NCBI GenBank assembly: GCA_963733055.1
Contig: CAVTBR010000001.1
Location: forward strand, 128,001 to 192,000
Origin: Candidatus Bathyarchaeota archaeon
Lineage (GTDB): Archaea; Thermoproteota; Bathyarchaeia; 40CM-2-53-6
Direction: 5' to 3'
DNA length: 64,000 nt
In this document: one piece after another, positions 796-62,473 of the stretch
How positions within the stretch are numbered: the first letter of the stretch is position 1
How the letters are laid out: every line of letters begins with the position of its first letter
The notes under the pieces: model-generated
The model's input: only the letters and a program-made list of their open reading frames with translations
Database searches by the model: none
Told to the model about the DNA's origin: nothing
Program-made: the position numbers and the translations under genes

Positions 796-847
796 TTGAC
801 AGTCAAGCTTCGACCGAACACACTCAGAAACACGATTCTAGTTTTCT

Positions 848-1551: not shown

Positions 1552-1558
1552 TCGTCGA

Positions 1559-2155: not shown

Positions 2156-2382
2156 TTCTTGGGGTTACCTCTCGTTTGCGTCATGTATTCCTGTATACCC
2201 TCTCTCACGATCTTGTAAAGTTCCGAATAGGCTACGGTTTGCGCATCCTTCTGTTCCTTCTTTGCAACGTATTTTCTGATGAACTCTTGAAAGCTCGGAT
2301 CCTCGGGGTTGATGTTGGCAGAGTAGTGTTCAAACATTCTGACTATGCGTGCGGTCACATGATCGAGGTAGGGTTCGGGCAA
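2152..2382 (-). CDS. Hypothetical protein
   Basis: 76-aa ORF with ATGA-type overlap into the AK6 gene. Confidence 0.55.
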   Translation of the reverse strand: MPEPYLDHVTARIVRMFEHYSANINPEDPSFQEFIRKYVAKKEQKDAQTVAYSELYKIVREGIQEYMTQTRGNPKK

Positions 2383-2408
2383 TGAGATGCGCCTCTTGGA
2401 GGATTGTG

Positions 2409-3248: not shown

Positions 3249-3253
3249 ACGCT

Positions 3254-4174: not shown

Positions 4175-4203
4175 TTGGCTTGATGGTAGAGGCTGCTATC
4201 GTG

Positions 4204-6348: not shown

Positions 6349-6455
6349 CGGTATATCGCGTCAGACACACCTAGCTCACTATAATCAGTTCCGGCAAATT
6401 CCTAACCGCTGTAACGAGTTTTGATGGCCCAAGTATCCCAGAAAGGTCGAGCATG

Positions 6456-7214
6456 CTACTCTGCCATATCGTCGGGCAACTTGTACCAGGGAACTTTTTC
6501 TCCGACCCTTGCACGCGCTTTCCAACCCATGCTCTTCGGTTCTTGTTCGATCATGTCGGAAATTCGCTTCATTCGTCCTCTCACAAGTTCTTTGTCGGCA
6601 GATGTCAACTCAAACCGCTCAAGCATGGAGGCGGTCTTGTCGAGAACGAGTGTGAAGGTCTTATACATTCCCCAATCCTTTGAACAAAGCTCCGCTAATC
6701 GCTTCCCGTTGATAGCCACGGGTTTGTCTGAATCCGCGACTTCGTGGTCCAGCAACATTGCCGTGATATCTTTGAAGTCTTTCTCGTTGGTTTTGAAGAT
6801 CTGTAATTTTGTCGCTAGGAGGTCTGCCATGGTCAGGGTTAATGGGTCTAGCGTTAATCTGTCTCTGAGGTCGATCTTGTGGCACATTTCGAAGTAGTCT
6901 AGGAATAGGTCGACTCTTCGCTTATTTGGCAGGTCGAAGAACATTAACCGAGTTGCACTGCGTAAGGCGTTGAAAATCTCGTTTGGGGAATAACCAAGCT
7001 TTGTAAATAATTCTCGAATCTTACGAGACTCCTTTCTGTACCCGACTAGGTCTATGTCCGGATACTTTCTTGAAACACTAGGCCTCTTTGCGCTCGGGCA
7101 TCTGAAGCCAATCGCCGTGCCTCCGAGCAAGCGCAGAGTGATCCCGTTATCTGCGGCGGTTGAGATAAGTCTGTTAGCTTCTCTCAAGATGTCGGATTCG
7201 GTTGTTACAGCCAA
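6456..7214 (-). CDS. Putative nucleotidyltransferase (Pol-beta fold), function unknown
   Basis: LLGGTAI..R.YPDIDL (GG..DxD) and a third acidic residue in VDLF; C-terminal KSMGWK.RAR.G..V.WY. Confidence 0.7.
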   Translation of the reverse strand: MAVTTESDILREANRLISTAADNGITLRLLGGTAIGFRCPSAKRPSVSRKYPDIDLVGYRKESRKIRELFTKLGYSPNEIFNALRSATRLMFFDLPNKRRVDLFLDYFEMCHKIDLRDRLTLDPLTLTMADLLATKLQIFKTNEKDFKDITAMLLDHEVADSDKPVAINGKRLAELCSKDWGMYKTFTLVLDKTASMLERFELTSADKELVRGRMKRISDMIEQEPKSMGWKARARVGEKVPWYKLPDDMAE

Positions 7215-7274
7215 GGCTAATCAGATCAATAAAAAAGAGAGGAGGGGAGTTGCGCTTAAGGTCTTTGACAGGGT

Positions 7275-8888
7275 CTAGGGTGGTGGAATCTCGCCGTAGA
7301 TCTGCGTTATTTTGATGCCGCGTTTCTCGTTCTTGGCGACGAAGATGATGAAGACTAGGACGCCGACTGCCATCCAGAGGACTGAAACGTTCCATGCGAG
7401 CAGTGAGATTCCTACTGTGCTGAGTGCCAGTATCCAGAACATGCCGACTACGCCAGCGGCACCGATTAGGCTCATTACTGGAATGCCGAACAACTTAGTC
7501 TTCATGCCTTTCTCCCAGATGTCAGGCCGTTTGAATGGGAGTACTGTGGCGGTGAATGCGACGATCAAGTAGGCGAAGGCGTACCAGAACGAGCTGTTGG
7601 CTGCAGCCGCAAGGAAGCCGTAGGAGGTTAGGGTTAGGAGTGCCACGATTATTCCGCCTATCATGCATGCGATGGTTGCTGGGACTGGCGTGTGCATTCT
7701 CTCGGACACTTTGCCGAATACCGCCGGGAACATTCGATCGAATGACATTCCGAACATGCACCTAGTTCCGGCCAGGTAAGTTACGATCACTGATGTGATA
7801 GGGTAAAACCACCAGGCCGCAAAAAATAGAACAATAGTCGAACCGGCTAAACTCGCTGAGAACAGAGGCATCGATGGAAGCAACATGTACGGAGCAACGT
7901 GTGCAGCGTCCGTCGCATTTAGTGTCCCGGCGCTATAGAGGTTGTAGACGTAGTTATACTGGAGTATGAAGCCGCCGTAGGCGTTGTAGGCCAGCCAAGT
8001 TACGAGACTGTACCATATTACGGTGCCAATCATGCCCGCCGTGAAGAAGTACATGAATGAGGAACGAGGATTCCTCAATTCTCCACCAACGTAGGCGTTG
8101 ACTTCGTAGCCTGTTAGTGCCCAGAAAATGTACGCAACAATCGCAAGGGTGTCGTTCCATGAGCCCGCCGAGACCCTTGAGACATACCCGGCCAGATTGT
8201 ATTTCGTGGCAAGGCTAGCTATCATCTCGAACGCGCCCGGACCCCACACGTGGTCCCATGCAGCGGGGACGGAACCTGGATTGTTTGTAGCGAAGAGTAT
8301 GGCCGATACGATTAAGCCGAGGGTGTTAAGGCCCCAGATCACCATCATGATCTTCATGTAATGTTTGATTTCGATCATAGCCAGCAATCCGAGGATGATG
8401 ATGATTAGAATGGTGAACTCCACTTGTGGTAGGGTACTGCTGAGCCACGAGCCGAACGAAGTGAGTGCAGGCATGTTGAAGGCGTTACCCCACATTGTAA
8501 ATATGGTTGAGCTTACTGCTCCCATAACGGATGCGACGAGGCCGATTGAGAATATTTGCGCTAACCAGTAAATCCATCCCGTCCCAATCCACCCTACGAA
8601 TGGGTCGACAAAACGGGATCCCCACACGTACGCACCCGCTGCTCTTGGAGTTGTAACGCCAAGCAATGCAAATGTGAAGACGCTGATGATTGTTGGTATG
8701 CCTACTAGTAGGAAAGCGCCGGGTACGCTTCCCATGGGATAGTTGTAGATGACTTCAATCGCGTAGAGCGTTATTCCACTGCCAGCCATAGAGGCCCACG
8801 GTAGCACGAATGAACCGACAGGTCCGATTTCCTTGACGAGCCCTGTAGATTTGCGCAGAAAAAGTTCTACTTTGAATTCTTCGGTCAA
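7275..8888 (-). CDS. APC-family amino acid permease
   Basis: FLRKSTGLVKE N-terminus, PRAAGAYVW, FGMSFDR.FP, multi-TM, C-terminal EIPP. Confidence 0.92.
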   Translation of the reverse strand: MTEEFKVELFLRKSTGLVKEIGPVGSFVLPWASMAGSGITLYAIEVIYNYPMGSVPGAFLLVGIPTIISVFTFALLGVTTPRAAGAYVWGSRFVDPFVGWIGTGWIYWLAQIFSIGLVASVMGAVSSTIFTMWGNAFNMPALTSFGSWLSSTLPQVEFTILIIIILGLLAMIEIKHYMKIMMVIWGLNTLGLIVSAILFATNNPGSVPAAWDHVWGPGAFEMIASLATKYNLAGYVSRVSAGSWNDTLAIVAYIFWALTGYEVNAYVGGELRNPRSSFMYFFTAGMIGTVIWYSLVTWLAYNAYGGFILQYNYVYNLYSAGTLNATDAAHVAPYMLLPSMPLFSASLAGSTIVLFFAAWWFYPITSVIVTYLAGTRCMFGMSFDRMFPAVFGKVSERMHTPVPATIACMIGGIIVALLTLTSYGFLAAAANSSFWYAFAYLIVAFTATVLPFKRPDIWEKGMKTKLFGIPVMSLIGAAGVVGMFWILALSTVGISLLAWNVSVLWMAVGVLVFIIFVAKNEKRGIKITQIYGEIPPP

Positions 8889-9095
8889 AGCAATTGACCG
8901 GAGGGAGGGTACAAGATAGTACGTTTATTAAACTAACTATGCTGGACCGGTCAAATATTACGACGGAAGAGCAACTATAGAGAATAACTGCGACTACTTA
9001 CCGCCTTGTTAGTTCTCGTGAAAGGCAAATTTGAAGCTTCATGCTTAACCGATTCATTTAACTTCAATTCGCCTACTACCCGAAACCGACGCGAT

Positions 9096-49522: not shown

Positions 49523-51193
49523 TTGTCCTACGATGTACGGTTTGAGTTTGGAATAAAACAGGAAATGCGCGATGGAACGAAGCTCTCCTCCGACATATAC
49601 CGACCCGACGCCAAAGGAAAATTTCCGGCCATTATTACCCGATCACCATACATGACCGTAGAAGGGTTCCAAAAGCGCTTCTCCGAAGAAGCAAAATTCT
49701 TCGCAAGACAAGGTTACGTATTTGTTATCCAAGACTGCCGAGGGAAGAACGATTCTGAAGGAATATTCCACCCATTCTTTGATGATCCAACCGACGGATT
49801 CGACGCCCTGAGCTGGTGCGCGAAGCAAGAGTGGTCAAATGGCGAACTGGGCACGATCGGAGCATCATACCAGGCATGGAACCAATGGGCCACAGCAACT
49901 CTAAACCCTCCCAATCTCCGAGCCATGGTATCGATAGTAGCTTTACCAGATCCGGTCCTGAACGTCCCTTTTCAAAATGGCGCGTTAGTCTTGTGGATGG
50001 CTGAATGGATGGCGATGGTTGACGGAAAGAAGAACACTGATCCATCAATATACGATTCTATGAAGCTGTATAATCACTTGCCACTCAGGACAATGGATGA
50101 GGCATTTGGGAGAAAAGAATCATCAATCTGGCAAAATTGGATAAACCATCCTGCCGCAGACGACTACTGGAAAGCTTCATTCTATCAGGACGAATTTAGT
50201 CAAATTGACGTCCCAGCCCTACATGTTTCGGGATGGTATGACGACGACGTCATAGGCACCCACATCAATTACACCGGCATGAGAAAATCCGGCAAGTCAG
50301 AACATGCAAGAATTAACCAGAAGTTGATAATTGGTCCGTGGCAACACCACGTAAACGCGACTAGGCAACTAGGGACAATCGATTTTGGACAATCATCACT
50401 GATAGACTTACGAAAGGTAGAGCTAGAATGGTTTGACTACTGGCTCAAAGGGAAAGAAACCGGGATAATGAAACAGCCCAAAGTCGACATCTTCACAATG
50501 GGCAAGAACATATGGAGAAGGACGGATTCGTGGCCTCTCGAAAAAACTGAGTACGTGAAATACTTTATTCATAGCAACGGTAAGGCGAACACCTCTGCAG
50601 GAGACGGCAAACTCTCTACAGCCAAACCGAACATAGAAGAGCCCTACGACTCTTATACTTACGACCCAGCCGACCCGTCTCCAAACATATACGACACCTC
50701 CACAATGGCTGCAGAGGGCCCCTACGATCAACGACCAATCGAGAGACGCAATGACATACTCGTGTACTCCACTTCTGCCTTAGATGATGACTTAGACATT
50801 ACCGGTCCGGTGAGCGTCAAGCTTTTCGCCTCTACTTCTGCACGTGACACCGATTTTTGGGTGCAACTTGTTGACGTTTTCCCGAATGGGTATTCGATGC
50901 ACTTGACCGAGGGAATCATCAGGGCTAGATACCGTAACTCACTTGAAAAACAAGAGCTTCTGGAGCCGGAGAAGATCTATGAGTTTGATATCGATTTATG
51001 GGTCACGAGCAACGTCTTTCAACGAGGTCACCGGGTGAGGGTCGATATTTCGAGCAGCTCTTTTCCAAAATACGACCGCAATCCAAACACAGGCAATCAA
51101 TTTGGCACTGACACGACGCTGAAGGTTGCTGACCAAAGAATCTACCATAACGAAAAGCATCCGTCCCATATTCTCCTCCCCATCATCGCTTAG
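49523..51193 (+). CDS. CocE/NonD (S15) family serine hydrolase
   Basis: MRDG..L..DIY.P, RSPY, QDCRG..SEG, GASY, GWYD, GPW.H; likely TTG start at 49523. Confidence 0.93.
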   Translation: MSYDVRFEFGIKQEMRDGTKLSSDIYRPDAKGKFPAIITRSPYMTVEGFQKRFSEEAKFFARQGYVFVIQDCRGKNDSEGIFHPFFDDPTDGFDALSWCAKQEWSNGELGTIGASYQAWNQWATATLNPPNLRAMVSIVALPDPVLNVPFQNGALVLWMAEWMAMVDGKKNTDPSIYDSMKLYNHLPLRTMDEAFGRKESSIWQNWINHPAADDYWKASFYQDEFSQIDVPALHVSGWYDDDVIGTHINYTGMRKSGKSEHARINQKLIIGPWQHHVNATRQLGTIDFGQSSLIDLRKVELEWFDYWLKGKETGIMKQPKVDIFTMGKNIWRRTDSWPLEKTEYVKYFIHSNGKANTSAGDGKLSTAKPNIEEPYDSYTYDPADPSPNIYDTSTMAAEGPYDQRPIERRNDILVYSTSALDDDLDITGPVSVKLFASTSARDTDFWVQLVDVFPNGYSMHLTEGIIRARYRNSLEKQELLEPEKIYEFDIDLWVTSNVFQRGHRVRVDISSSSFPKYDRNPNTGNQFGTDTTLKVADQRIYHNEKHPSHILLPIIA

Positions 51194-51219
51194 CCCACTC
51201 CAACGAACGTGAACCGTGT

Positions 51220-51927
51220 TTGACTGGAAGAGTAGAGGCGGGAGCAGAGGCTAGGCCGGAATTTCTCGCCGGCGTGAGAGCTACGTTGCCCCTCCTTCTC
51301 GGCGCGATCCCCTTTGGAGTGACTTATGGTGTGCTGGCTTTTTCGGGTGGATTGAGCGTTTCCGCTGCACTTGGCATGTCTTCGATAGTATTTGCCGGCT
51401 CATCACAGTTTGTGGCCGTACAACTCTTCACCCTCGCCGTACCCGCTGTGGTCATAATCGTTACCACGTTTATGGTAAACCTGCGCCACGCCTTGTACAG
51501 CGCATCACTTTCCCCACATCTGAGGCATCTTCGCTCGCTCTGGAAGTGGGTTCTGAGCTACCTTCTTACCGATGAAGCCTACGCCGTAACCATTGTACAT
51601 TACGATCGTGTTGGGACTTCACGGAACGGACACTGGTTTTTCCTCGGAGCAGGACTAACGTTGTGGACTGCCTGGCAGGCGAGCACGGCCGCAGGAATTT
51701 TTCTAGGTGAGGTGATCCCGACAAGTTGGCCACTCGATTTCGCTATAACTTTGACTTTCATCGCTCTCCTCGTTCCAATGCTGAAAGATAGGCTCAGTGT
51801 GGGGGTGTCGTTGACCGCAGGAATGATCGCGGTACTTACGATTAACCTCCCACTTCGATTGAACCTCATACTCGCTGTCATCATAGCCGTTGTCATAGGG
51901 GTAGCGATCGATCGAATCAAGAGATGA
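51220..51927 (+). CDS. azlC: AzlC branched-chain amino acid exporter subunit
   Basis: FAGSSQF, VNLRHALYS, LTDEAYA, LDFA. Confidence 0.93.
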   Translation: MTGRVEAGAEARPEFLAGVRATLPLLLGAIPFGVTYGVLAFSGGLSVSAALGMSSIVFAGSSQFVAVQLFTLAVPAVVIIVTTFMVNLRHALYSASLSPHLRHLRSLWKWVLSYLLTDEAYAVTIVHYDRVGTSRNGHWFFLGAGLTLWTAWQASTAAGIFLGEVIPTSWPLDFAITLTFIALLVPMLKDRLSVGVSLTAGMIAVLTINLPLRLNLILAVIIAVVIGVAIDRIKR

Positions 51928-51934
51928 CATCGCT

Positions 51935-52264
51935 TTGCTAAATCCGGAAACTGTCTGGCTAACAATTGTCGCGATGGGCGTGATCACATTCGCTTTGAGA
52001 CTATCGTTCATCGTATTCCTTGGACACATCAAACTCCCAGCCTCAGTAAGGCGTGGCCTAGACTTCGTCCCGCCGGCCGTCTTTGCCGCATTGATCCTTC
52101 CGGACCTCCTTCGAAACACGATGATAGCTCCCCTTTCTATTCACATGGAGGCCCGTCTCATTGCGGGGATAGTTGCCGTGATCGTGGCCTGGCGCACGAA
52201 AAACGTTGTGTTGACGATTGGCGTGGGATTCGCGTTTTTGTTCCTATTGCAAGCATTCACGTGA
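51935..52264 (+). CDS. azlD: AzlD exporter small subunit
   Basis: T.ALR, VPPAV.AALI.P, AWRTKN...TI..G; follows azlC. Confidence 0.9.
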   Translation: MLNPETVWLTIVAMGVITFALRLSFIVFLGHIKLPASVRRGLDFVPPAVFAALILPDLLRNTMIAPLSIHMEARLIAGIVAVIVAWRTKNVVLTIGVGFAFLFLLQAFT

Positions 52265-52299
52265 GAAACACTTATCGCCCAAAATAACAGAAAAGTGGT

Positions 52300-52947
52300 T
52301 TACTCGATGCGTCGGCCGGCCTCGTTACGGAGGCAATCGAACATGAGCATCGTAACGTAGGCTCCTGGATCTGGCTTTCCGAGAGTCTGCTCTCCAAGAT
52401 ACCGCGCCTTTCCCCGCTTTGCCACAAAGCTCTTGGTCAATTCATAGCCAGCTTCAGCAGCATTCGCCGCATCTTCCAAAGCCAACAGAAGAGGCGTATT
52501 TTTCGAGGCCGAATTCTTGAGCGATGCCACTGCCGGATCGAGCACGTCGATAAGTGTCTTCTCGCCTGCATGTGCACCTCCACGGGCCTCCACTTTTCCC
52601 ATGGACGCCTCAAACATCGCCGCCAAGTCCGATACCCTTAGCTCGCTTCTCGATTTGGCAACATCTCCTGCCGACGCGAATAACGTACCGAATATCGGAC
52701 CCGCAGCTCCGCCAGCCGAGGAGAGTATCGCCCGCCCAGCCTCTGATAAGAGAAGGCCTGCATTATTGCTCCCTGGAGATTCGAGAACTTTCATGACTTT
52801 CTCGAAGGCTACGTGCATGGTTGTCCCAAAGTCCCCGTCTCCGCATGCCGCGTCCATTTTGTTCAATTCATCTTTTGATCCAAGAACACGGCGTGCAAAA
52901 TTCAGAAGGAAATCTCTGAACTGTGCGTAGGAGAGGGACTCTTCCAA
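52300..52947 (-). CDS. dhaL: Dihydroxyacetone kinase L subunit
   Basis: D...GDGDFG, GGAAGP.FG, GEKT.IDVL, RGKARYLGE..G.PDPGA; TTG start at 52947. Confidence 0.9.
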   Translation of the reverse strand: MEESLSYAQFRDFLLNFARRVLGSKDELNKMDAACGDGDFGTTMHVAFEKVMKVLESPGSNNAGLLLSEAGRAILSSAGGAAGPIFGTLFASAGDVAKSRSELRVSDLAAMFEASMGKVEARGGAHAGEKTLIDVLDPAVASLKNSASKNTPLLLALEDAANAAEAGYELTKSFVAKRGKARYLGEQTLGKPDPGAYVTMLMFDCLRNEAGRRIE

Positions 52948-52960
52948 CAGGCAACGCCCG

Positions 52961-53975
52961 TTAGGACTTCGGGACCGTTCCGCACCAGCGATACGCTGGC
53001 GTGACCAGCGGGTGCATCGAAACACTTCTTCAACTCTGGGTCGAGACGCATCAATGTCACCGAGCATCCTGCCATTTCTTGAGATGTTAGGAAATTGCCG
53101 ACTTCAGTTCGATGAATTGAGATCCCTAATTCTTTCAAGAGCTGATGGGTTTTTCGGTTTATGATGAAGAGTTCCATTAGCGTTGTGGAACCGTAGCCAT
53201 TGACGATAACGTTCACTTCATCGCCTTCCTTGAAAGGCAAATCCTTGACTACTTCATTCACGAGAGCTTGGGCGGTATCGTCCGCTGGAAGCAGCCCCGT
53301 CTTTCTGGTTCCTTTCTCTCCGTGCGCTCCGATTCCAAAATACATCTCCTCCGGCCCGATCGTGAAGGTCGGTTGTCCGCTCGTGGGGACTGTGGCGGGT
53401 GACAGGCCGACAGCGAAAGTGCGTGAGTTATCTCTAGCGCCCTCTGCCACTCTCCTCACTTCCGAAAGGCTTGCTCCCTCCTCGGCTTTCGCTCCTGCCA
53501 CTTTGATTACGAACAGATCACCAGCTAACCCACGCCTCTCCTGAACCGAATCGGGGGACGCCGAGGCTACATCGTCCCAGACGCGAACCGTAGCTGTCTC
53601 AATTCCGTCCTCTTTCGCATTTTCCGCAGCGATATCGAAGTTCATGTTGTCCCCCGAATAGTTTCCATAAACATACAAGATACCCTCCCCACCGTCTACC
53701 GCCTTGGTCGCATCGAGAATCATTGGCGGGGATGGGGCTGAGAAAACGTCGCCAAGCACCGCCGCATCAGCCATCCCGTACCCTACCCAGCCAAGGAAAA
53801 GTGGTTCATGCCCGCTGCCACCGCCTACGACCACACCAACTTTACCGGAAACGGGTGCACCTTGCCGCGCGACGACGTGTGGATTGACGAGCTTGACCAA
53901 CCGGTTGTATGCGCAGGTGAAACCTTCGATGCTTTCCACCGTCACGTTAAAGGGATCATTGATGAGCTTCTTCAA
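52961..53975 (-). CDS. dhaK: Dihydroxyacetone kinase K subunit; probable +1 frameshift near 53005
   Basis: KKLINDP, GGGSGHEP, NYSGD.MNF, RRGLAG, G.HGE.G, TSQEMAG; alternative frame restores DAPA/VTPAYRW..* ending just before dhaL. Confidence 0.9.
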
Positions 53976-54114
53976 TCGACCATCACTGAAAAGGCTGGAT
54001 TCGTAATCCAGCACGACTTAGCTTTAGCCTATCGGTACAGTGACTAGAAACATTCGACCGGCTATCGCAGTCGCGGTAATGATTGAAATCGGCGGATTCC
54101 GAAATTGATCGAGG

Positions 54115-54495
54115 CTACGCTGCCTTTGGTTTTTGCAACAGTACGTAGGCTGTCAGAGCCATTATGACAACCTGGGCGATGAAGACCTCAACGCTTCCAG
54201 GTGGGAACAAATCTGTGGAGAACCCAAATACTTGACCGCCTGACAGAGGTGTGGGAATTGTGGCGGTTATCAAGATCAATATGTTGTCGATGAGTGACAA
54301 GACGAAAAGGCCAATGGCAGCAGGTTTGAACAGCTTACCTGATGTCAGCACCGCGACGGCGCCCGCTGCAAAGAGTACTGTGGTAACCGAGAAGTAGAGT
54401 CCGATGGGGTCGGAGAATCCGGCCAAGGTCGTGTGCGCATAAGCGTTGTACAGTGCAACTATTAGAATCACGATCTTAACGGGAGAGACTTTCAT
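54115..54495 (-). CDS. Hypothetical 4-TM membrane protein
   Basis: Hydrophobic ORF from ATG at 54495, with TTTAAA TATA-like elements upstream. Confidence 0.7.
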   Translation of the reverse strand: MKVSPVKIVILIVALYNAYAHTTLAGFSDPIGLYFSVTTVLFAAGAVAVLTSGKLFKPAAIGLFVLSLIDNILILITATIPTPLSGGQVFGFSTDLFPPGSVEVFIAQVVIMALTAYVLLQKPKAA

Positions 54496-54667
54496 AACAT
54501 CTGACCTAGCTAGGCGATGATGTTTTAAACTATTTAAACTTACTATGTCTGTAGTAGGATGAAACAGAGCTTTCCGGACCACCGCGGGCCGGCGCCTCAT
54601 CAATTCTCCGAGTCGATTCGCTCACATGCTTGTCGGCCGGTACAAAGTTTCTTACCGTTTTCTGCGT

Positions 54668-54712
54668 ATTCCTTTAGGAATGAATTCCGATGGCTGAAAT
54701 TCCTATAGGAAT
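54668..54712. promoter_or_regulatory. Tandem palindromes ATTCCT-WW-AGGAAT, 31 bp apart, upstream of the thrC-like TATA box
   Basis: ATTCCTTTAGGAAT at 54668-54681 and ATTCCTATAGGAAT at 54699-54712; TATTAATA near 54729. Confidence 0.7.
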
Positions 54713-54780
54713 ATCGAGTTCAACCATCTATTAATACCGCTCTCGCATGCGGCGAATCAAATTCGGGTTGTTGTTGAAAT

Positions 54781-56007
54781 TTGGGAGTTGTACAATCACT
54801 CGTCTGTCGTCGCTGTGATGCTGAAAGCCCGCCGCAAAGAACCATCTCATGTCCACAATGTTTTGCGCCACTTGACGTCACTTACGACCTTGATTCAATA
54901 GAGCTTACTCACTCTTCGTTTGAATCACGGGCGAGAACACTCTGGAGATACAAGGAGCTGCTCCCTGTTCAAGATTCGAAGAACATTGTTGATTTGAACG
55001 CTGGATTTACTCCGCTTCATCGGTGCAGAAATCTTGAGCGAGTTCTTGGATTACAGGAGCTGTACGTGAAGAATGATGGTTTGAACCCGACTAATTCTTT
55101 CAAGGACAGACCTGCTTCTGTGGCTATCTCCAAAGCGATCGAATTTCAGCTCGGGGTTGTTGGTGCAGTCTCGACTGGAAACCTCGCAGCCGCAATGTCC
55201 GCTCATGCAGCTAAAGCAAACCTACCCTGCTACATATTCATCCCTGAGGGGATAGAGGCAGGCAAGATCGCGCAGATCAACGCTTACGGCCCTCATATAT
55301 TGAGCGTCAGGGGGACCTACGATGACGCCAACCGTCTCGCGTACTTGGCTTCAGAGGAGTATGGTTGGACGATTGCCAACATAACCATGCGTCCCTACTA
55401 TGTCGAGGGTTCCAAGACTCTTGCTTTCGAGGTTTGTGAACAGTTAGGTTGGCAGGCTCCGGATCATATGATTGTAGCCGTTGGAAGCGGCGCCCTGATG
55501 CGAGCAATCTGGAAAGGGTTTGATGAATTTCACAAGATTGGCCTAATCGGGAATCGAACTCCGTCCATTCACGGCGCTCAAGCATCGGGATGCGCTCCTG
55601 TCGCCACAGCTTTCGAAAATAACACCGAAAAAATACGGCCGGTACCAAAACCCGACACAATAGCAAAGAGCATAGCGATCGGTGATCCGGGGGATGGAGC
55701 TTACGCCATCGAGGTTGCCAAGAGAACTAGTGGCACGATAGGCCAAGTGACGGATTCCGATATTCAAAAAGCCATAACCCTTCTCGCATCCAAAGAAGGA
55801 ATATTCGCTGAACCCGCCGGCGCGGTAACCATTGCATTACTCAACAAACTTGTCGACGAGGGACGTATCGATACCGATGAAAGCGTCGTCTGCTGCGTAA
55901 CGGGTAACGGGCTGAAGTCCGTCGAGGCTGTTCCAACCTACAACCAGCGTTGGCATACCCTCGACCCAACGCTTCAATCATTGAACGCGATTGTAGAAAA
56001 TGGGTGA
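54781..56007 (+). CDS. thrC: Threonine-synthase-like PLP enzyme
   Basis: N-terminal CxxC..CxxC, LWRY..LLP, NPTNSFKDR, STGN, EG.KT, EPA, TGNGLK. Confidence 0.88.
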   Translation: MGVVQSLVCRRCDAESPPQRTISCPQCFAPLDVTYDLDSIELTHSSFESRARTLWRYKELLPVQDSKNIVDLNAGFTPLHRCRNLERVLGLQELYVKNDGLNPTNSFKDRPASVAISKAIEFQLGVVGAVSTGNLAAAMSAHAAKANLPCYIFIPEGIEAGKIAQINAYGPHILSVRGTYDDANRLAYLASEEYGWTIANITMRPYYVEGSKTLAFEVCEQLGWQAPDHMIVAVGSGALMRAIWKGFDEFHKIGLIGNRTPSIHGAQASGCAPVATAFENNTEKIRPVPKPDTIAKSIAIGDPGDGAYAIEVAKRTSGTIGQVTDSDIQKAITLLASKEGIFAEPAGAVTIALLNKLVDEGRIDTDESVVCCVTGNGLKSVEAVPTYNQRWHTLDPTLQSLNAIVENG

Positions 56008-56295
56008 ATCATCTTCGGACAAATAACCGTTAAACTGTACGGGGCAGCGGTCGAAGCCGCGAAACGGCAGACCGAGACAAAAGTTGAAGCGTCAAATGTT
56101 CGCGAACTTCTCGGCAGGCTCTGTGACGATTTCGGCGACTCATTCAAACGCAAGGTTATCGATTCGAAAGGTGGACCTCAACCTTTCGTGAGTGTCTACG
56201 TCAACAACACTGACATACGTCATCTAAACTACGTCGAAACAGAGTTGAAGGATGGCGATGAAGTTCTGATTCTTCCCGCCGTAGCAGGCGGTTAA
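56000..56295 (+). CDS. MoaD/SAMP ubiquitin-like sulfur carrier (start disrupted)
   Basis: Not in the ORF track: ITVKLYG..VYVNNTDIRHL..ETELKDGDEVLILPAVAGG*; ATG at 56000 needs one more A in the A-run near 56021. Confidence 0.85.
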
Positions 56296-56373
56296 TCAGG
56301 AAACCGAATTGGCGTCTATCAAAGAGGGCGGGACACAGATCCTACAGGCACTACTCCAACCAAGACTGACGAC

Positions 56374-56522
56374 CTCTACAGAGGGGAGATCAGTCGATAC
56401 GGACGACCCTCATTAATCCTAAAGTCGGCGCAAAAGAACGGAAGTGACTCAAAGCAACAAGCCTAGTCGTGGTCGCCGCGGAGGCTTGGATCGCTAACTT
56501 GGTTTACCTGACAACAGCCGTT
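56374..56522 (+). pseudogene. Decayed N-terminal fragment of a MoeB/UbaA (E1-like) gene
   Basis: Across frames: EISRYGR/LINPKVGAKERK*LKATSLVVV/AGGLGS../YLTTA, matching the ERYSRHL..VG..GQ.RL...V.VVGAGGLGS..YL.AAG pattern. Confidence 0.65.
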
Positions 56523-56600
56523 CAAATCCTGAAAACTGGGGGCCTGAGAGCAAATCCGCTCACAAACCGCATTCTAACTGGATCGTTGTTACCTGAGAGT

Positions 56601-57449
56601 TTAGCCGTGGGGCAATTCCTTCTCGGCCTGCGTTAGCGTACATCCGACTGAACCACCTGGCTTAGATTGCGATTTGTGAGACCGATCGGATATGACGGCG
56701 ACAGTCGCTAACAATTCTTTACCGATTGCTGGGCGGGTTTCCGTGGGATCCATGTTGGTGTGGGTATTGCAATTTGGCTGACAGCGAAAAACATTGTCGG
56801 CTAATCTGCCCTCTACGTTTGTCCATTTTGACGTGTAATGCTCAGCGTTTAGTGAAGCGATTCGGAACTGGCGGTTCATCTTGCCGTTGCGTTCGGTGCA
56901 TTTCATTTCGAAGATGCCGTCGAAGAGGGGTTTGAGCATGCTCACGAAATTTGGTGGGTGGACGCCCTCTTCCAAGGTCAATATGCTTGGTACGTGGTCT
57001 TTGCGTAGACGTGCGGTCAGGACCTGGAGAAACTTGTAGGTAGCGGCAGGGCCAGCTTCTAGACTTAAGGTTGTGATGGAATCAAGTGCAAACGCGTAGC
57101 TTCTCATCTCGAGTCGAGCTTTGTCGATTACTATGCTCACCTCGCCTAAGCTGAGCCCGTTAGCCGACCAAGTAGCAGCTGGATCTTTCTCACCGAAGCG
57201 CCACGAATAGCTGTCGACGATCCGGAGAATGTTTTCTACATTACTGAACTTCGAGCGTTTTGAGAGAAGTTGGAGATGATGTGATGGGGGCTGATCGGTC
57301 ACAACGTAAAGGCATCTTTTCTGCTCTTCCAAGTAGTCGTGTAGAAACCTTAGGATGTAGCTAGTCTTGCCCGCGGTTGGTGGGCCAGTCAACAGCCACA
57401 CGCCCTCGGAAACATTCCCTTTGGTGAGCTGATCTGAACCTGGAAACAT
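56601..57449 (-). CDS. KaiC/RAD55-like RecA-superfamily ATPase
   Basis: LLTGPPTAGKT, IVDSYSW, LDSIT, FDGIFEM, R.FRI. Confidence 0.85.
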   Translation of the reverse strand: MFPGSDQLTKGNVSEGVWLLTGPPTAGKTSYILRFLHDYLEEQKRCLYVVTDQPPSHHLQLLSKRSKFSNVENILRIVDSYSWRFGEKDPAATWSANGLSLGEVSIVIDKARLEMRSYAFALDSITTLSLEAGPAATYKFLQVLTARLRKDHVPSILTLEEGVHPPNFVSMLKPLFDGIFEMKCTERNGKMNRQFRIASLNAEHYTSKWTNVEGRLADNVFRCQPNCNTHTNMDPTETRPAIGKELLATVAVISDRSHKSQSKPGGSVGCTLTQAEKELPHG

Positions 57450-57452
57450 GTC

Positions 57453-58526
57453 TCAAGTTACCTTCTTTTCTAGAAGTGGAGCGACTCCGCGAAGTACGTT
57501 GGAAACCATGTATTCACGATCGGTCCTCCACCGTCCATTTTGGAACGGATCGGGATCAATGCCCCAGCGGAAGCTGGATAAGTAATCGCACCAGAACATT
57601 TCTACCAGAGAACAATGCAGCTTCAAGATACCGTACACGAGTGGGATATCGAGTGATGATAGCGTTGCATATAGTACGAAGCCGTCTTGTTCCGGCCACA
57701 GTGTGGACTGGAAAGGCAGCTCCGATACGGCAGCGGAGACTTGTTTCACGACACTGAAATTGCATTTGCAACGAAATAGTGCGATCGTCGCTAGCCCCGT
57801 TAGGAATGCGCCCGCTAGCACCCTGTAGCCTAGGATCACCTTTTCCGACTGTAAGAAATCCAATCTACGGCTCAAGGTGGATTCCGAAACTCCTACGTGT
57901 CTGGCTATGTCGCGTTGAGCTCGTAATATGTCGATAGAAACTTCACTTAGAATTCTCAAGTCGATTATATCAAGTCGATCAAGGATTGATGGCAAAGGGG
58001 CGGCCGGGGGAGGAGGGGCTGAGGACCAATTCCGCTCCCAAGTTTTCCAATCAAACGTCCAGCCTTTTCCAGGAGTGTAACGAGAGTAGTCCGTTTCAGG
58101 CATAGCTATATCGGCAATTGGGAAGTGGAGATCGTAGCTCTCTATTTTTCCTAAGCCTACTAGATTTTCAAACAATTCTAGTAGCAGGGCAGTGGTTCCG
58201 GGTGGAATTGCGAACCTCACAAAGAGAGCGCTCTCTGAGCCTGAACAGCGAATACGATACTGCGTGTACGGATGCTCGAGGCAAAGCGCTTCAAGGAGCG
58301 GCCATGAATCGGGCTGACAGCGAAGTATGCAGGCTACTGATTCTAAACCTACTCTACCGTAATTTACCTGGGCTGAAACTCCCAAGAGATTTTTTTCTGA
58401 CTTTAACCGTTCAATGGTTTTCGCCACATTCCCGCACGAGACTCCCAGCCGACCCGCAATGGCAATGTTTGATTGAAGCGGATTCTCTCCCAAGTACGAA
58501 AGCAGATTTAGCTCGAATTTATCCAT
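57453..58526 (-). CDS. Tandem Lrp/AsnC-like winged-HTH regulator
   Basis: Two HTH units: IAGRLGVS..VAKTIERL and LD.IDLRIL..IARHVGVSESTLSRRL. Confidence 0.8.
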   Translation of the reverse strand: MDKFELNLLSYLGENPLQSNIAIAGRLGVSCGNVAKTIERLKSEKNLLGVSAQVNYGRVGLESVACILRCQPDSWPLLEALCLEHPYTQYRIRCSGSESALFVRFAIPPGTTALLLELFENLVGLGKIESYDLHFPIADIAMPETDYSRYTPGKGWTFDWKTWERNWSSAPPPPAAPLPSILDRLDIIDLRILSEVSIDILRAQRDIARHVGVSESTLSRRLDFLQSEKVILGYRVLAGAFLTGLATIALFRCKCNFSVVKQVSAAVSELPFQSTLWPEQDGFVLYATLSSLDIPLVYGILKLHCSLVEMFWCDYLSSFRWGIDPDPFQNGRWRTDREYMVSNVLRGVAPLLEKKVT

Positions 58527-58553
58527 CTATAGCTCCTCCCTTCCCACCCGCAT

Positions 58554-58613
58554 GAGAAAAAGAGAACGCATCTCTAGTTAGGGGAGAAAACATAGAGGCT
58601 CCCCTACCTAGAG
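58554..58613 (-). terminator. Stem-loop followed by a U-rich tract after the peptide gene
   Basis: CTCTAG-G-TAGGGGAG / 12-nt loop / CTCCCCTA-A-CTAGAG, then TTCTCTTTTTCT. Confidence 0.7.
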
Positions 58614-58625
58614 CGCGCTTATTGG

Positions 58626-58838
58626 TCACCTAGTACCTGGACCCACATTACCCGGACCAATGCTCCCGCCGCACCTTGGATTGGGTGAGATACCGAAGTT
58701 CACGCCCTCTCCGACGCCAGGTTTAGCAAGAACGCATATGGGGCCTACCTGTACAAGGCATGCGAACACTGCACTGGCTTGTATCAGACCCACCACGATG
58801 ATCACGGCTAACACTAGGCCCAACGTTTTGCCCCGCAT
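58626..58838 (-). CDS. Small secreted Cys/Gly/Pro-rich peptide (70 aa)
   Basis: Signal peptide MRGKTLGLVLAVIIVVGLIQASAVFA plus a 44-aa mature part; GGTGA SD and strong TATA upstream. Confidence 0.75.
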   Translation of the reverse strand: MRGKTLGLVLAVIIVVGLIQASAVFACLVQVGPICVLAKPGVGEGVNFGISPNPRCGGSIGPGNVGPGTR

Positions 58839-58862
58839 TTCTTTCACCTACCTGCATAAATT

Positions 58863-58880
58863 GCTTAATATATATAAAAA
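58863..58880 (-). promoter_or_regulatory. Strong TATA box of the peptide gene
   Basis: TTTTTATATATATTAAGC about 30 nt upstream of the ATG. Confidence 0.7.
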
Positions 58881-58939
58881 ACTTGCGCCCCACATGTTTA
58901 AAATCGTCATTGTCTTGGAAAAGTTTTGTTATTATTTTG

Positions 58940-61900
58940 TCAAAGTTTAGCTTCTGTTATCATCAGGTCGCGTTTTGCACCGAGTTTCCTGAAGAGTTCC
59001 GATGCCTCCCCGAGTCGCTTCTTCGATTCTTCAACCTTCGTCGTTCCTAGAAATTCAGCGTATGCTGCGAGGGCCTTGGCCTTGTAGTACGGCCAACCCG
59101 CCTTATCCCACAAAGCTAGGCATCCGAGATAAGCTTCCTCCGCTCCTTTGAGATCGCCAGTAGCAAGTAGGAGGTTTGCTTCAGCCTGCATAGCCATTGC
59201 CATGCCTGCTTGGCCATTCAGTTGCGCCGCAAGTCGTTTCGCCCACTGAGAACTGTTCCGTGCCTTCTCGATTTCTCCTTGCCTAGCATAAACTTGGGTT
59301 AAGTAGAGCAACGTTTCGATGTGATTTAATGGCTGAGTGCTGAATTCGGCATCTTTGAAGGCCTCAACATTTGATTCGAAATAAGGCTTAGCCTCATCGT
59401 CCCTTCCCTGTGCCATTCGGAGTTGGCCCAACTCCAGATTAACTTCAACAAGAGAGGCCAATGTTGAATCTCGCTTGATCAAGGATCGAAGATACCTTTC
59501 GAATTCCTCAGACTTTCCTTCCAACAGATGTCGAAGCTTTTCCCTTCGGAGTTTGTAGTATTCTGAGGGAGCCGCTCCGAGCCGGTCGAAGACTTCGAAG
59601 GCCTTGTCGGCTTCATTACGCGCCTTCCCCCAGTCTCCTCTTAGCATGTCCACATACGACAACCATCCCAGTGAGGTAGCTTGCATCATAATGTCGTTCA
59701 ATCTGGCTGCTAACTCGAATCGTTTCAGCATGAATTCGCGGGCTTTCGTGAGGTCTCTGGGATACCAGTATACACTCAAGTTAAGGGAAGCACGGAAGGC
59801 TTGAATGTATTGTTCGTGTTGCAGCGATAACTCGAGAGCCTTTTCCCAGAGCGTAAGGCCTTCGTCGATTTTGCCTGTGTCAGTTAGGAGCGCACCCTTA
59901 TTGCCAATTGCCATTGAGATGGCTTCGAAGTTCCCGCTTTTCTCTCCCGCCTTTAGACCACGTTCCGACCAATTAGCGACTTCGCTACGCTCCTCGCATA
60001 GACCATGGAACCAAGCTAATCTTGAATAGATCGCTGCGGCCTCAAAGCTTTCCTGATCGGATTCAACATTTTTGAGACCTCGTTCAAGCACCGAGATCGC
60101 TTCATGGTACGCTGTCGATTCGATAGTACTGAACCCTCCGCGGCCGATCGCGTCTGATAGTCTGACAGAAATTCGTGCACATGCCGTGAGGTTGTTCAGT
60201 CGGCTGAAGATTGAGCGGGCTAGCTCATAATCGCGCGCGCTTTCTTGAAGCCTACCAGCGTAAAAGTAGCATTCCGCTAGCTTCTCGAGGGCGCCCGCCT
60301 TAATCTCGTTATTTTCCCCTTCAAGATCCATTAGATCAGATGCGAGTTTGAAGTCGTGGATGGCAGCATCATATGCATGAACAGACCTGTTCCTATCTCC
60401 CGCCATGATTGAATACTTGACCGTCCGCTCCTTGTCGCCGCCCTCAGAGTAATGACTCGCTAACGCTTCAGCGTGGGATTCAAGGGTCTTCGAGTAATGC
60501 TTCTCCATAGACTCCGCAATCTTCAGATGATACCTCCGACGCTTCAGCAGGATCAGGTCTTCGAGTAACAGCTCCCGAACCCGTGGGTCTGCGAACCTTA
60601 GTCTGCCATGCTCCATCTGGAGCTCAACGACCAGCCCCTGATTTATAGTGGCTTCAAGCTTCTCGAGCAGTGTGTCTTCAGTGAGTTGCAAGGCTTCCTT
60701 TAGAATCTCGAAATCAAACTCGGACCCAATGACCGCCGCCCACTGGAGGATTGAGAGAGTTTCGGGGTCGAGTTTCGTAAGCCGAGCCCTAAGCGCCGTC
60801 TTTACACTTCTTGGAATGGTCAGGTCTTGGATTGGTTTTCGTTCCCATCCCTTGTCCGTACGATAGATTGTTCCATCCTCTACGAGTGATCGGAGAACCT
60901 CCTCAACAAAGAATGGGTTCCCGCCTGTTCTCTCAAAGAGAAGCTCCGCGAACTCGCCAGAGAGTGTTTGTTCGCCGAAAATGCCTTTGATCAGCTTTGT
61001 TGTACCCTCTAGGTCCAGACCTTTTACTGAAATGGTCTCCAGAAGCCGTTGCTTGTTGAATTTCATCATGGTCTGTTCAAGTGGGCTGTCAGCTTCAATA
61101 TCACGTTCCGGAGGCAGAGAGCAAACCATCAAGACGCGTGAGTCGGTACTGCTCCTGACCAAATATTCGAGCAAATCCAATGATGGCTGATCGGCGAATT
61201 GCATATCATCAAACAGCAAGAGGAGCGGAGATTCCTTACAAATGGAAATGAAGAACTGTGTGACAGCCTCGAAGAAGCGCAGCTTATCCTGTTGCTCTCC
61301 GAGGGACTTGGGTGGCGGAATAGTTCCAACCTTCACAGCGAGGTCCGGAACCAACTTCACAAGCTCAGAAGCGTTGGGACCCAGCATTCTTTGCAAAACT
61401 TCTCCAGCGGCTTGTGCCACATATTGCCTTGCAATTTCGATCCAAGGAGCGTAGGCTACTCCCTCCTCGGATGCGGTACCGGACAAGACCAATGAGATCT
61501 TGGATCTCGCGTAGGTTGCCAGCTCGTGCATGAGGCGTGTCTTGCCTACACCCGCCTCACCCTGCATCGCAACCACCGACCCTCGACCACCAAGTGCACT
61601 GTCAAACGATGCCTTGAGCCTGGAGAGTTCCTCTTTTCGACTCACGAAGGACGTTGCCCAACGGGGTTCCTTGGACGGAGCGGCTGCGACCGTACCAGAT
61701 GTTTCAGATACTCGTGTCTGAGCGGTCAAATCGACCAGTGACAGCTCTTTCTCCACAACCTCGACACCATGCATCCATTTTACTCGAAGTGACTTCTGTC
61801 CCTCCCCCTCGACGATCTCCAGATTACCATCAAAGAGACCAACAACGGCCTGGACATCTTCGCCGGAATGCATGTATGGATTCAAAACAGCGAGGGTCGT

Positions 61901-62473
61901 GATTGACTTTGATCTCAATCGTTCTAGTAGTTCTGTTAGCCATTTTCGTGTTTGGAGGCCCTTGTGGCGAAGCAGAACGTCGGACAGGATGTCGAGTACA
62001 ATACGTTTCGGTTGAATCGAGATTAAGGCGTCGTTCATCTGAAGGTTCAGGTCTGTGAGACTATCAATTCCCTTACCCGGAATCACGTTCTTTGAGGGTG
62101 GAACAGGTTTGTCGCTGCAAACAAGAACCTTGACGCCCTGAGTTGAATCATGCGTCACGATTTCGGCGGATGAAGACGTCCGACAGATCAGCAGACTCTC
62201 ATCCGATTCAACTCGCAGAAACCGTTTGAGAAGTATCGGCACCTCATCGCTTGCGGGAGCATTCAACACAATCATCGAACCCGCGAGGAATCCGCCCTGA
62301 AGAGCCTTGTCTAAGGTAGCGTACCCAGTCGAAACCTTACTCTTCATTGAAGTGGCAGGAGCTGGCTTTTCGGTCAAGTTTGCGAGGGCCCTAAACCTGC
62401 AAGCGTGTATGCTTCCCAAAAGAGGTTTACGGTCCGAGACAGCAAAAAGCTCATCATCTGACCCATTGTCCAC
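58940..62473 (-). CDS. STAND-type NTPase with N-terminal degenerate KaiC-like domain and C-terminal TPRs
   Basis: VSTGYATLDKAL.GG (KaiC start, no Walker A); FVSR..EL, GEAGVGKTRL, LLLFDDMQ.AD, TGGNPFFVEE; TPR helices; true start may be TTG at 62377. Confidence 0.85.
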   Translation of the reverse strand: MDNGSDDELFAVSDRKPLLGSIHACRFRALANLTEKPAPATSMKSKVSTGYATLDKALQGGFLAGSMIVLNAPASDEVPILLKRFLRVESDESLLICRTSSSAEIVTHDSTQGVKVLVCSDKPVPPSKNVIPGKGIDSLTDLNLQMNDALISIQPKRIVLDILSDVLLRHKGLQTRKWLTELLERLRSKSITTLAVLNPYMHSGEDVQAVVGLFDGNLEIVEGEGQKSLRVKWMHGVEVVEKELSLVDLTAQTRVSETSGTVAAAPSKEPRWATSFVSRKEELSRLKASFDSALGGRGSVVAMQGEAGVGKTRLMHELATYARSKISLVLSGTASEEGVAYAPWIEIARQYVAQAAGEVLQRMLGPNASELVKLVPDLAVKVGTIPPPKSLGEQQDKLRFFEAVTQFFISICKESPLLLLFDDMQFADQPSLDLLEYLVRSSTDSRVLMVCSLPPERDIEADSPLEQTMMKFNKQRLLETISVKGLDLEGTTKLIKGIFGEQTLSGEFAELLFERTGGNPFFVEEVLRSLVEDGTIYRTDKGWERKPIQDLTIPRSVKTALRARLTKLDPETLSILQWAAVIGSEFDFEILKEALQLTEDTLLEKLEATINQGLVVELQMEHGRLRFADPRVRELLLEDLILLKRRRYHLKIAESMEKHYSKTLESHAEALASHYSEGGDKERTVKYSIMAGDRNRSVHAYDAAIHDFKLASDLMDLEGENNEIKAGALEKLAECYFYAGRLQESARDYELARSIFSRLNNLTACARISVRLSDAIGRGGFSTIESTAYHEAISVLERGLKNVESDQESFEAAAIYSRLAWFHGLCEERSEVANWSERGLKAGEKSGNFEAISMAIGNKGALLTDTGKIDEGLTLWEKALELSLQHEQYIQAFRASLNLSVYWYPRDLTKAREFMLKRFELAARLNDIMMQATSLGWLSYVDMLRGDWGKARNEADKAFEVFDRLGAAPSEYYKLRREKLRHLLEGKSEEFERYLRSLIKRDSTLASLVEVNLELGQLRMAQGRDDEAKPYFESNVEAFKDAEFSTQPLNHIETLLYLTQVYARQGEIEKARNSSQWAKRLAAQLNGQAGMAMAMQAEANLLLATGDLKGAEEAYLGCLALWDKAGWPYYKAKALAAYAEFLGTTKVEESKKRLGEASELFRKLGAKRDLMITEAKL

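Follow-up and report, generated by a model that had tools for sequence, protein, structure and literature searches.

Which genes of an archaeal locus that resembles a peptide-signalling system belong together, and what might they do? The locus lies on the minus strand of the window, the 64,000-nucleotide (nt) stretch of DNA analysed here, which comes from a Bathyarchaeia genome of 2.88 Mb in three contigs (G000; G-numbers denote genomes, L-numbers denote loci, and G013 is a species of the same genus). The original prediction combined four co-oriented genes into one system, and all four open reading frames (ORFs) are present:

58940..62473, minus strand: iKaiC-STAND-TPR gene, 1177 amino acids (aa), assigned by Pfam, outside the conserved cassette described below
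58626..58838, minus strand: pre-peptide gene, 70 aa from its ATG or 73 aa from an upstream GTG
57453..58526, minus strand: tandem Lrp/AsnC-type regulator, here called tLrp1, 357 aa, assigned by Pfam, AlphaFold2 (AF2), Foldseek and alignment A1
56601..57449, minus strand: single-domain ATPase of the KaiC/GvpD/RAD55 family, DUF7504 type, 282 aa, assigned by Pfam and its Walker A motif

Comparison with related genomes points to a functional unit of three genes and not four: the peptide, regulator and KaiC-like ATPase genes, in a cassette of about 2.1 kb. The segment that the window shares with L035–L037 holds the peptide gene, the regulator gene and most of the KaiC gene: window 58866..56784 is common to L036 and L035, 58829..56812 is common to L037, and the flanks differ. 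Thus delimited, the locus retains the peptide gene and the peptide–regulator and regulator–KaiC partnerships of the original prediction, and loses the STAND-TPR gene. The core of the unit is a pairing, in which genes for predicted exported proteins with a conserved C-terminal tail adjoin tLrp1.

A conserved pre-peptide gene upstream of the regulator

The small signal-peptide ORF is a real, conserved gene. Using the regulator homologs as anchors for tblastn, we found peptide homologs at the same position in L034–L037 (41–51% identity), and in these loci, as in the window, a pre-peptide of 70–86 aa is encoded directly upstream of the regulator. Among L034–L037 the signal-peptide region hardly varies, and the indels preserve the reading frame. 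The ratio of nonsynonymous to synonymous substitution (dN/dS) was 0.30–0.59 for the whole ORF, 0.24–0.26 for the signal peptide and 0.29–0.72 for the mature part; for comparison, it was 0.12–0.17 for the regulator and 0.14–0.27 for KaiC. Direct searches with the window peptide gave nothing credible among 60 relatives (best non-self match E 0.0088, with stop codons), and phmmer against 1.84 billion representatives returned the peptide itself and three long repetitive proteins, which we judged spurious.

The N-terminus of the 70-aa pre-peptide is strongly hydrophobic (best 15-aa Kyte–Doolittle mean 3.05) and is followed by V-F-A and then C. We predict a Sec-type signal peptide with cleavage after V-F-A, which would leave a mature peptide of 44 aa, Gly/Pro-rich, with three Cys and the tail N-P-R-C-G-G-x-x-G-P. 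A class III (pilin-type) signal peptide was rejected by eye, as there is no K/R-G/A cleavage motif before the hydrophobic stretch.

Three candidate expression signals surround the gene:

58871..58878, minus strand: TATA-box-like TTTATATA of the peptide gene, the sole exact match in the window
58844..58848, minus strand: GGTGA, a Shine–Dalgarno (SD)-like motif 5 nt before the peptide ATG, by sequence reading
58572..58613, minus strand: hairpin after the peptide stop codon, assessed by fold energy and shuffles, with a run of five T at 58557–58561

Both the TATA box and the SD motif of the original prediction are present. The TATA-like box lies 32 nt before the ATG, a spacing that, if the box is correctly read, implies a very short leader; its single occurrence in 64 kb is not improbable in itself (0.66 expected; at least one in 49 of 100 shuffles). 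The GGTGA motif is conserved in L036 and L037. As for the predicted hairpin with a U-tract, the hairpin held up: its arms at 58572–58586 and 58599–58613 are 15 nt long and 93% complementary, with a 12-nt loop and a fold energy of -29.6 kcal/mol (z = -4.1; none of 200 shuffles reached an equally good fold). The T run starts 10 nt past the stem, so that the U-tract is close by without abutting it. L036 (z -2.35) and L037 (z -2.08) have hairpins of different sequence at the corresponding position, and the hairpin and T run of the window are likely to form a partial terminator or attenuator. A scan for sigma-70 and terminator consensus sites gave no more sites than shuffles, and the sole Rfam match, an sRNA inside the regulator gene on the opposite strand, was dismissed at 27.2 bits, below the cutoff of 37.

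Two further sequence elements were noted near the promoter. At 58906–58948, in the interval from the STAND stop codon to the TATA box of the peptide gene, lie two 21-nt direct repeats, 76% alike and 22 nt apart, which could be an operator; this is a two-copy family, and chance could also account for it. At 58851–58861, between the TATA box and the SD motif, the palindrome GCA-N5-TGC is present in the window and L036 and reads GCG-N5-CGC in L037, a symmetric change that preserves the palindrome in an alignment read by eye.

A family of predicted exported tail proteins adjoins tLrp1

Under the original prediction, homologs of the regulator should have a peptide gene beside them. At L031–L046, all 13 judgeable loci have a co-oriented upstream gene whose product carries a signal-like N-terminus and a D-P-x-x-G-G-x-x-G tail (L042, L044 and L046 have insufficient upstream DNA to be judged). 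We then turned to 401 Bathyarchaeia genomes, an even sample of the class, of which 20 have tLrp1. Among the 20 tLrp1 loci outside G000, 19 could be judged (L091 has no upstream DNA), and a tail-protein gene adjoins tLrp1 in 18 of them, co-oriented in 16 and divergent in 2. Sixteen of these partners were detected by the family hidden Markov model (HMM; E <=1.9e-5), and those of L079 and L081 by the motif and the signal-like N-terminus only. The two sets overlap, since L031–L033 duplicate species genomes that are in the 401-genome sample; L034–L036 are near-identical to one another. In the same-genus regulator homologs L003 and L004 (31% identity), the tail-protein gene is divergent. Directly upstream of tLrp1 in these two loci is a conserved ORF of 56–62 aa without a signal peptide (L003 2615-2803; L004 2622-2792).

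The reverse search of the same 401 genomes found the tail-protein family in 16, all of them among the 20 with tLrp1. The family occurs there in 18 places, 16 directly adjacent to tLrp1 and two at contig ends. Its 41 database members are all unnamed and have no Pfam domains, and without exception they terminate in D-P-x(1-2)-G-G-x(1-3)-G. The last three or four residues of the tail vary between clades; D-P-P-G-G is fixed.

In most relatives the partner is a folded protein of 145–190 aa. Its AF2 model (predicted local distance difference test score, pLDDT, 72) has a sandwich of seven strands between a signal helix and a disordered tail. The sandwich, of about 100 aa, resembles only generic Ig-like domains (CsgH, RbmA, ApaG, GH2). 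In the regulator tree, the window clade (100/100) is sister to L038–L040 (100/100), whose partners are 174–182 aa except in L039, and both are nested inside clades with full-length partners. Short forms also occur elsewhere in the tree, with 82 aa in L039 and 108 aa in L079 and L081. The tree has 26 rows after a filter removed three; tLrp2, a paralog described below, supplies outgroup-like rows, and the drawing is midpoint-rooted. The nested positions of the short partners indicate that the body shrank on at least three occasions, each time leaving the signal peptide and tail in place. The 70-aa window peptide looks like such a shrunken family member, keeping only the signal peptide and tail, although its homology to the family rests on position and motif and not on sequence statistics.

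tLrp1 as a fused tandem Lrp/AsnC protein

The regulator matches PF13404 (50.1 bits, cutoff 27) and PF13412/HTH_24 (48.4 bits, cutoff 21.9), each in two stretches. An AF2 model built from a 12-sequence alignment (pLDDT 89, predicted template modelling score 0.87) consists of two successive units, each with a three-helix helix-turn-helix (HTH) and a beta-alpha-beta-beta-alpha-beta domain, joined by a linker that is conserved as W-x-F-D-W-x-x-W-E in alignment A1. Foldseek placed the fused siroheme decarboxylase NirDL as the best match in the PDB (E 1e-13, template modelling (TM) score 0.55–0.62, 14% identity), followed by single-unit Lrp/AsnC regulators (TM 0.6–0.8, normalised to the target). On models and profiles together, the regulator is best described as a fused tandem Lrp/AsnC protein.

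It shares with Lrp/AsnC (feast/famine) regulators the AsnC-type HTH and an alpha/beta RAM-like domain, and with NirDL the duplication of the HTH and RAM-like unit in one chain. It differs from Lrp/AsnC proteins in having no match to Pfam AsnC_trans_reg (PF01037), though a RAM-like fold follows each HTH in the model, and from both groups in its motifs H-P-Y-T-x-Y-R, W-x-F-D-W-x-x-W-E and D-Y-x-S-S-x-R. Unlike AhbA, AhbB and NirDL, tLrp1 lies outside the equivalog model (NCBIfam AhbA model NF040708, 13.2 bits against a cutoff of 140), so it is not an AhbA/NirD equivalog; its neighbours are unrelated to haem synthesis, and the fused fold alone is shared. Alignment A1 has 51 invariant tLrp1 columns. 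The two HTH domains account for 7 of them; the other 44 lie in the linker, the RAM-like domains and the C-terminus.

A second pre-peptide and tandem Lrp module in the same genome

G000 has 20,021 ORFs of 40 aa or more, and four of them carry a relaxed tail motif near the C-terminus. Two of these have a signal-like N-terminus, and both precede a tandem Lrp gene: the window peptide and a 43-aa ORF at C1:1349681-1349812. The latter belongs to a second module outside the window (G000:C1:1348420-1349812; L093 2421-3813), in which the gene for the 43-aa pre-peptide, preceded by an SD motif and an A/T-rich box, lies directly upstream of and co-oriented with a regulator that we call tLrp2. This regulator is homologous to tLrp1 (hhalign probability 98.3%, E 1e-14), the W-x-F-x-W linker included. 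In the G000 copy, a 1-nt frameshift leaves two ORFs, one of 245 and one of 178 aa; elsewhere the ortholog is one uninterrupted ORF of about 390–420 aa.

Of 61 relatives sampled, 33 carry tLrp2; within the family, 32 of 36 genomes do. An upstream pre-peptide of 43–72 aa was seen at 8 of 20 tLrp2 loci, which are the closer ones (>=58% identity) except L097; at the other 12 none was seen, L105 being ambiguous. The mature peptides, about 15 aa after a V-S-A/G-D cleavage-like site, begin G-D-[PG]-x-G-G-G and have a conserved His. In G015, the precursor upstream of the tLrp2 ortholog (L098 1259-1477) holds two tandem mature units of 16–17 residues, an arrangement that, by analogy, is like that of multi-copy pheromone precursors.

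The KaiC-like ATPase and other third genes

The original prediction placed the regulator and KaiC genes 3 nt apart, and the interval from the regulator stop to the KaiC start is indeed 3 nt. Their pairing is conserved in the close clade: ATPase orthologs with 74–81% identity, named "KaiC/GvpD/RAD55 family" by JGI, directly follow the regulator in L034–L037 and L042. The 282-aa ATPase matches KaiC PF06745 (44.4 bits, cutoff 26.6) and DUF7504 (43.5 bits, cutoff 27), has an intact Walker A (GPPTAGKT at residue 22), and gave PDB profile matches to KaiC, PH0284 and SSO2452. It is not circadian KaiC proper, which has two KaiC domains in tandem and KaiA/KaiB as partners: the ATPase has one domain in 282 aa, scoring 23 bits against a cutoff of 408 for the NCBIfam KaiC equivalog. 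Its last ~60 residues (window 56601-56783) have no counterpart in the orthologs of 241–264 aa, and this part would be a lineage-specific extension or read-through.

The gene pair invites comparison with GvpD–GvpE of haloarchaeal gas-vesicle clusters. In the available part of PMC4390858, the P-loop ATPase GvpD is described as binding the activator GvpE and lowering its amount, with gvpD and gvpE adjacent. Here too a P-loop ATPase gene stands beside a transcription-regulator gene, and ATP-dependent control of the amount or activity of the regulator is proposed. In contrast to tLrp1, GvpE is a leucine-zipper-like activator and not an Lrp protein, and GvpD is larger than the window ATPase. The likeness comes by way of the JGI family name and not of a direct comparison of GvpD with the window ATPase, and an interaction is suggested by the 3-nt gene spacing in five loci.

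In other clades a small helical protein adjoins tLrp1, in 9 of 20 loci, two of which were used in building its HMM. It is nearest to NitrOD5 (Atlas, TM 0.80); Pfam itself gives no match, and the NitrOD5 identity is a lead only. At L107 (2141-2395) and L109 (2129-2386), two tLrp2 loci without a pre-peptide, a co-oriented upstream ORF of 85 aa gave a weak NitrOD5-like HMM match (E 6e-4 to 9e-4). L036 has a separate cluster of a NitrOD5-like protein, a winged HTH (wHTH) protein and a canonical KaiC five kb downstream of the cassette. The occurrence of KaiC-like or NitrOD5-like proteins beside tLrp1, together with this cluster, suggests that tLrp1 is wired into KaiC-type signalling in more than one way.

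Several features recall the archaeal KaiC-centred signalling network as set out in the accessible portion of PMC5847659: a single-domain KaiC-like ATPase beside a wHTH regulator, inactivated KaiC (iKaiC) fused to other signalling modules, as here in the STAND protein, and NitrOD5-like ("Death-domain-like") small helical proteins, which in other clades stand beside tLrp1. That portion of the source, unlike our data, contains no description that we found of an exported tail-protein partner or of a tandem-Lrp pairing.

Proposed mechanism and alternatives

The exclusive pairing, the conservation and the folds are the observations from which we propose a dedicated module of exported tail peptide and tLrp1, self-regulating and modulated by the ATPase; for this model as a whole we would put the chances at about even. 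A strong promoter would drive the small gene and yield an abundant pre-peptide transcript, whose product would be exported by the Sec route and cleaved after V-F-A. The hairpin and T run would let only part of the transcription read through into the genes of tLrp1 and the ATPase, the latter being translationally coupled to tLrp1. tLrp1 would act as a dedicated transcription regulator of the peptide gene and its own operon by binding the promoter region, and the ATPase would modulate the amount or activity of tLrp1 in an ATP-dependent manner, as GvpD does to GvpE. The active part of the exported product would be the conserved C-terminal D-P-x-x-G-G-x-x-G tail, and the window peptide would be a reduced form within an exported beta-sandwich family specific to Bathyarchaeia. 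We infer export, cleavage, DNA binding at the peptide promoter, the ATPase–regulator interaction, partial termination and the extracellular role of the tail.

Several points weigh against this model. Expression, export and binding are predictions from sequence. The spacing of 32 nt leaves almost no leader, and the SD motif and TATA box may not both work as read. One tLrp1 locus, L088 (G133), has no tail-protein neighbour. The membership of the short peptides in the family lacks statistical significance: hhalign of the window-clade peptide against the beta-sandwich family gave E 0.023 with a probability of 2% over 9 columns, the family HMM gave E 0.18 (L037), 1.1 (L039) and 1.3 (L036) on short peptides, and the window peptide itself had no match at E<=10. 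Its tail starts N-P-R where the family has D-P-[PR]. The 44 invariant regulator columns outside the HTH domains fit a ligand pocket, and they also fit a NirDL-like role without DNA binding. Finally, the ATPase adjoins tLrp1 only in the window clade (five loci; 0 of 20 species-genome loci), and because this adjacency is so confined, the ATPase would be an accessory and not a core part.

A bolder alternative, possible but tentative and in our judgement unlikely, is peptide signalling in Bathyarchaeia, in which Sec-exported C-terminal oligopeptides would serve as cell–cell signals and the tandem Lrp protein as their cytoplasmic receptor. The precursor would be cut at D-P-x-x-G-G, and the oligopeptide would accumulate outside, be taken up, bind the pseudo-dimer of RAM-like domains and switch the cassette and other targets. 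Such signalling would account for the exclusive pairing across two paralogous tandem-Lrp families, for the retention of the signal peptide and tail alone when the body shrinks, and for tails whose extreme C-termini vary by clade behind a fixed D-P-P-G-G. It is also in keeping with the tLrp2 pre-peptides of 43–72 aa with a mature part of about 15 aa, the two-unit precursor of L098, the concentration of invariant regulator residues in the RAM-like domains, linker and C-terminus, and a gene layout that places an abundant peptide before an attenuated regulator. Nevertheless, there is no conserved peptide transporter or processing protease nearby, the ~100-aa beta-sandwich carried by most family members would be needless for a pure signal, and the peptide is present at only 8 of 20 tLrp2 loci. 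To our knowledge, moreover, RAM domains bind amino acids and not peptides.

The natural yardstick for such signalling is the RRNPP group (Rap-Phr, NprR-NprX, PlcR-PapR and AimR-AimP), the peptide quorum-sensing pairs of Firmicutes and their phages. As in those pairs, a small Sec-type pre-peptide gene adjoins a cytoplasmic regulator gene, the conserved and potentially active part lies at the C-terminus of the precursor, and a compact peptide–regulator cassette occurs in differing genomic contexts. In contrast to them, the window system has an archaeal host and, as its adjacent regulator, a tandem Lrp/AsnC protein without TPR; the TPR-bearing STAND protein shows no conserved association with the peptide, the partners are mostly beta-sandwich proteins of 145–190 aa, and no Opp-type importer is linked; sensing is here a proposal only. 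On its gene content the window system would work like an RRNPP pair without being a member of that group, a TPR receptor being absent from the pair. If the signalling interpretation were right, the two systems would be convergent, and the window cassette would be a variant with a KaiC/GvpD-type ATPase as a second input.

Somewhat more doubtful still is that the exported product has its own job outside the cell, be it as a matrix or surface protein, as an antimicrobial peptide or as a Gly/His/Cys peptide that binds metal, and that tLrp1 controls its production through an unrelated small ligand. Local regulator–target gene pairs are common. The partner fold, an Ig-like sandwich of the generic type that matrix and chaperone-like proteins also have, agrees with such a job, as do the Gly-rich tails with His or Cys. 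Left unexplained, however, are the dispensable body with its invariant tail and the fact that none of the 401 genomes has the family without tLrp1, and no immunity or transport genes lie nearby.

That tLrp1 might instead be an enzyme or chaperone of the NirDL/AhbAB kind, acting on the precursor tail before export, is suggested by the siroheme decarboxylase NirDL as best structural match and by invariant His, Tyr, Asp, Glu and Arg residues outside the HTH domains. We consider this very improbable, given the AhbA score far below cutoff, the low NirDL identity, the match of both HTH domains to AsnC-type HTH models and the lack of haem-pathway genes nearby.

The STAND-TPR gene is an unlinked neighbour outside the cassette, and the four-gene system of the original prediction, in which the peptide would be sensed by the TPR repeats of the STAND protein and the signal relayed to the stand-alone KaiC ATPase through KaiC–KaiC contacts, now has hardly any credibility. 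The gene is adjacent to and co-oriented with the others in the window genome, and the N-domain of its product is homologous to KaiC-like ATPases. The 1177-aa protein is a STAND NTPase with a repeat array behind the NTPase domain: it matches AAA_16 (87.7 bits, cutoff 32.6), TPR_12 (52 bits), several other TPR families and a MalT-like TPR region. Pfam KaiC matches partially over residues 134–234 (25.7 bits, just under the cutoff of 26.6) and the NCBIfam KaiC model aligns to residues 41–195, so that the KaiC models together span 41–234. Its sole Walker A is at residue 305, with no G-x4-G-K-[ST] before it, which is why we read the N-terminal domain as an iKaiC. The term, for a KaiC-like fold that has lost its P-loop, is taken from the accessible text of PMC5847659.

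What separates this gene from the cassette is synteny with G013. By blastn, window 49649-54563 corresponds to positions 1-4934 of a G013 contig and window 58965-62441, with the STAND gene at 85% identity, to positions 5526-8998. The segment between is missing there, and with it the peptide, regulator and KaiC genes; G013 has no full-length regulator homolog (best match E 6e-5). Conversely, L036 and L037 have the cassette and no STAND gene within 7 kb of it, and we found no comparative support for a TPR receptor coupled through KaiC–KaiC contacts. The STAND protein has, on its sequence, no signal peptide or membrane segment with which to meet an exported peptide. The family is also expanded in the genus. 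G000 has two further full-length paralogs, one of them broken by a stop codon in frame, and throughout the genus the iKaiC N-domain appears in fusions with a wide range of other C-terminal parts. The features concerned are:

54563..58965, strand not assigned: 4.4-kb segment without counterpart in the G013 synteny, by blastn, with PALP, KaiC, tLrp1 and peptide genes
C1:97700-101155 and C3:497290-500724: further iKaiC-STAND-TPR paralogs of G000

Finally, classical attenuation, in which the small ORF would be a cis-acting leader peptide whose translation controls the hairpin terminator before the regulator, deserves next to no weight: a short ORF, hairpin, T run and regulator do stand in series, but the ORF is constrained at the protein level, with a conserved signal peptide and tail, and a folded protein of 145–190 aa occupies the same position in most relatives.

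Implications

Archaeal quorum sensing is described as largely unexplored in the available part of PMC13464002. Each protein of the cassette belongs to a known superfamily. Our full-text literature search found no description of a peptide–regulator pair in archaea, nor of the exported tail family, the two tandem-Lrp families or their pairing. The module is a tangible candidate that can be recognised by three features, namely a signal peptide, a D-P-x-x-G-G-x-x-G tail and an obligate tandem-Lrp neighbour. Two paralogous families and dozens of Bathyarchaeia genomes show this sharply defined signature. Members of the class are difficult to cultivate; some of the predicted mature peptides have about 15 residues and are hence easily synthesised, and recombinant proteins would allow tests of peptide–protein and protein–DNA binding. 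If the signalling interpretation were true, this would be archaeal peptide quorum sensing convergent with RRNPP. If it fails, there would still be a new exported protein family, a new tandem-Lrp family and a link of that family to KaiC-like and NitrOD5-like signalling proteins.

Neighbouring genes

The 4.4-kb segment also carries a 408-aa PALP (threonine-synthase-like) gene on the plus strand at 54781-56007. In G013 the segment is replaced by ~590 bp with an unrelated 127-aa ORF, which we take, from its motifs and not from a family scan, to be pterin-carbinolamine-dehydratase-like. A mobile-element origin of this indel was considered and set aside, as Pfam shows no integrase or transposase among the neighbours scanned. 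In L036, a divergent group beside the cassette encodes a 361-aa tandem-Lrp paralog together with an Lrp-type regulator and a 145-aa protein; this group and the NitrOD5-like cluster farther downstream are covered by L036 4234-6362 and 11583-12962. The 145-aa protein resembles a 117-aa protein near the tLrp1 homolog in L004.

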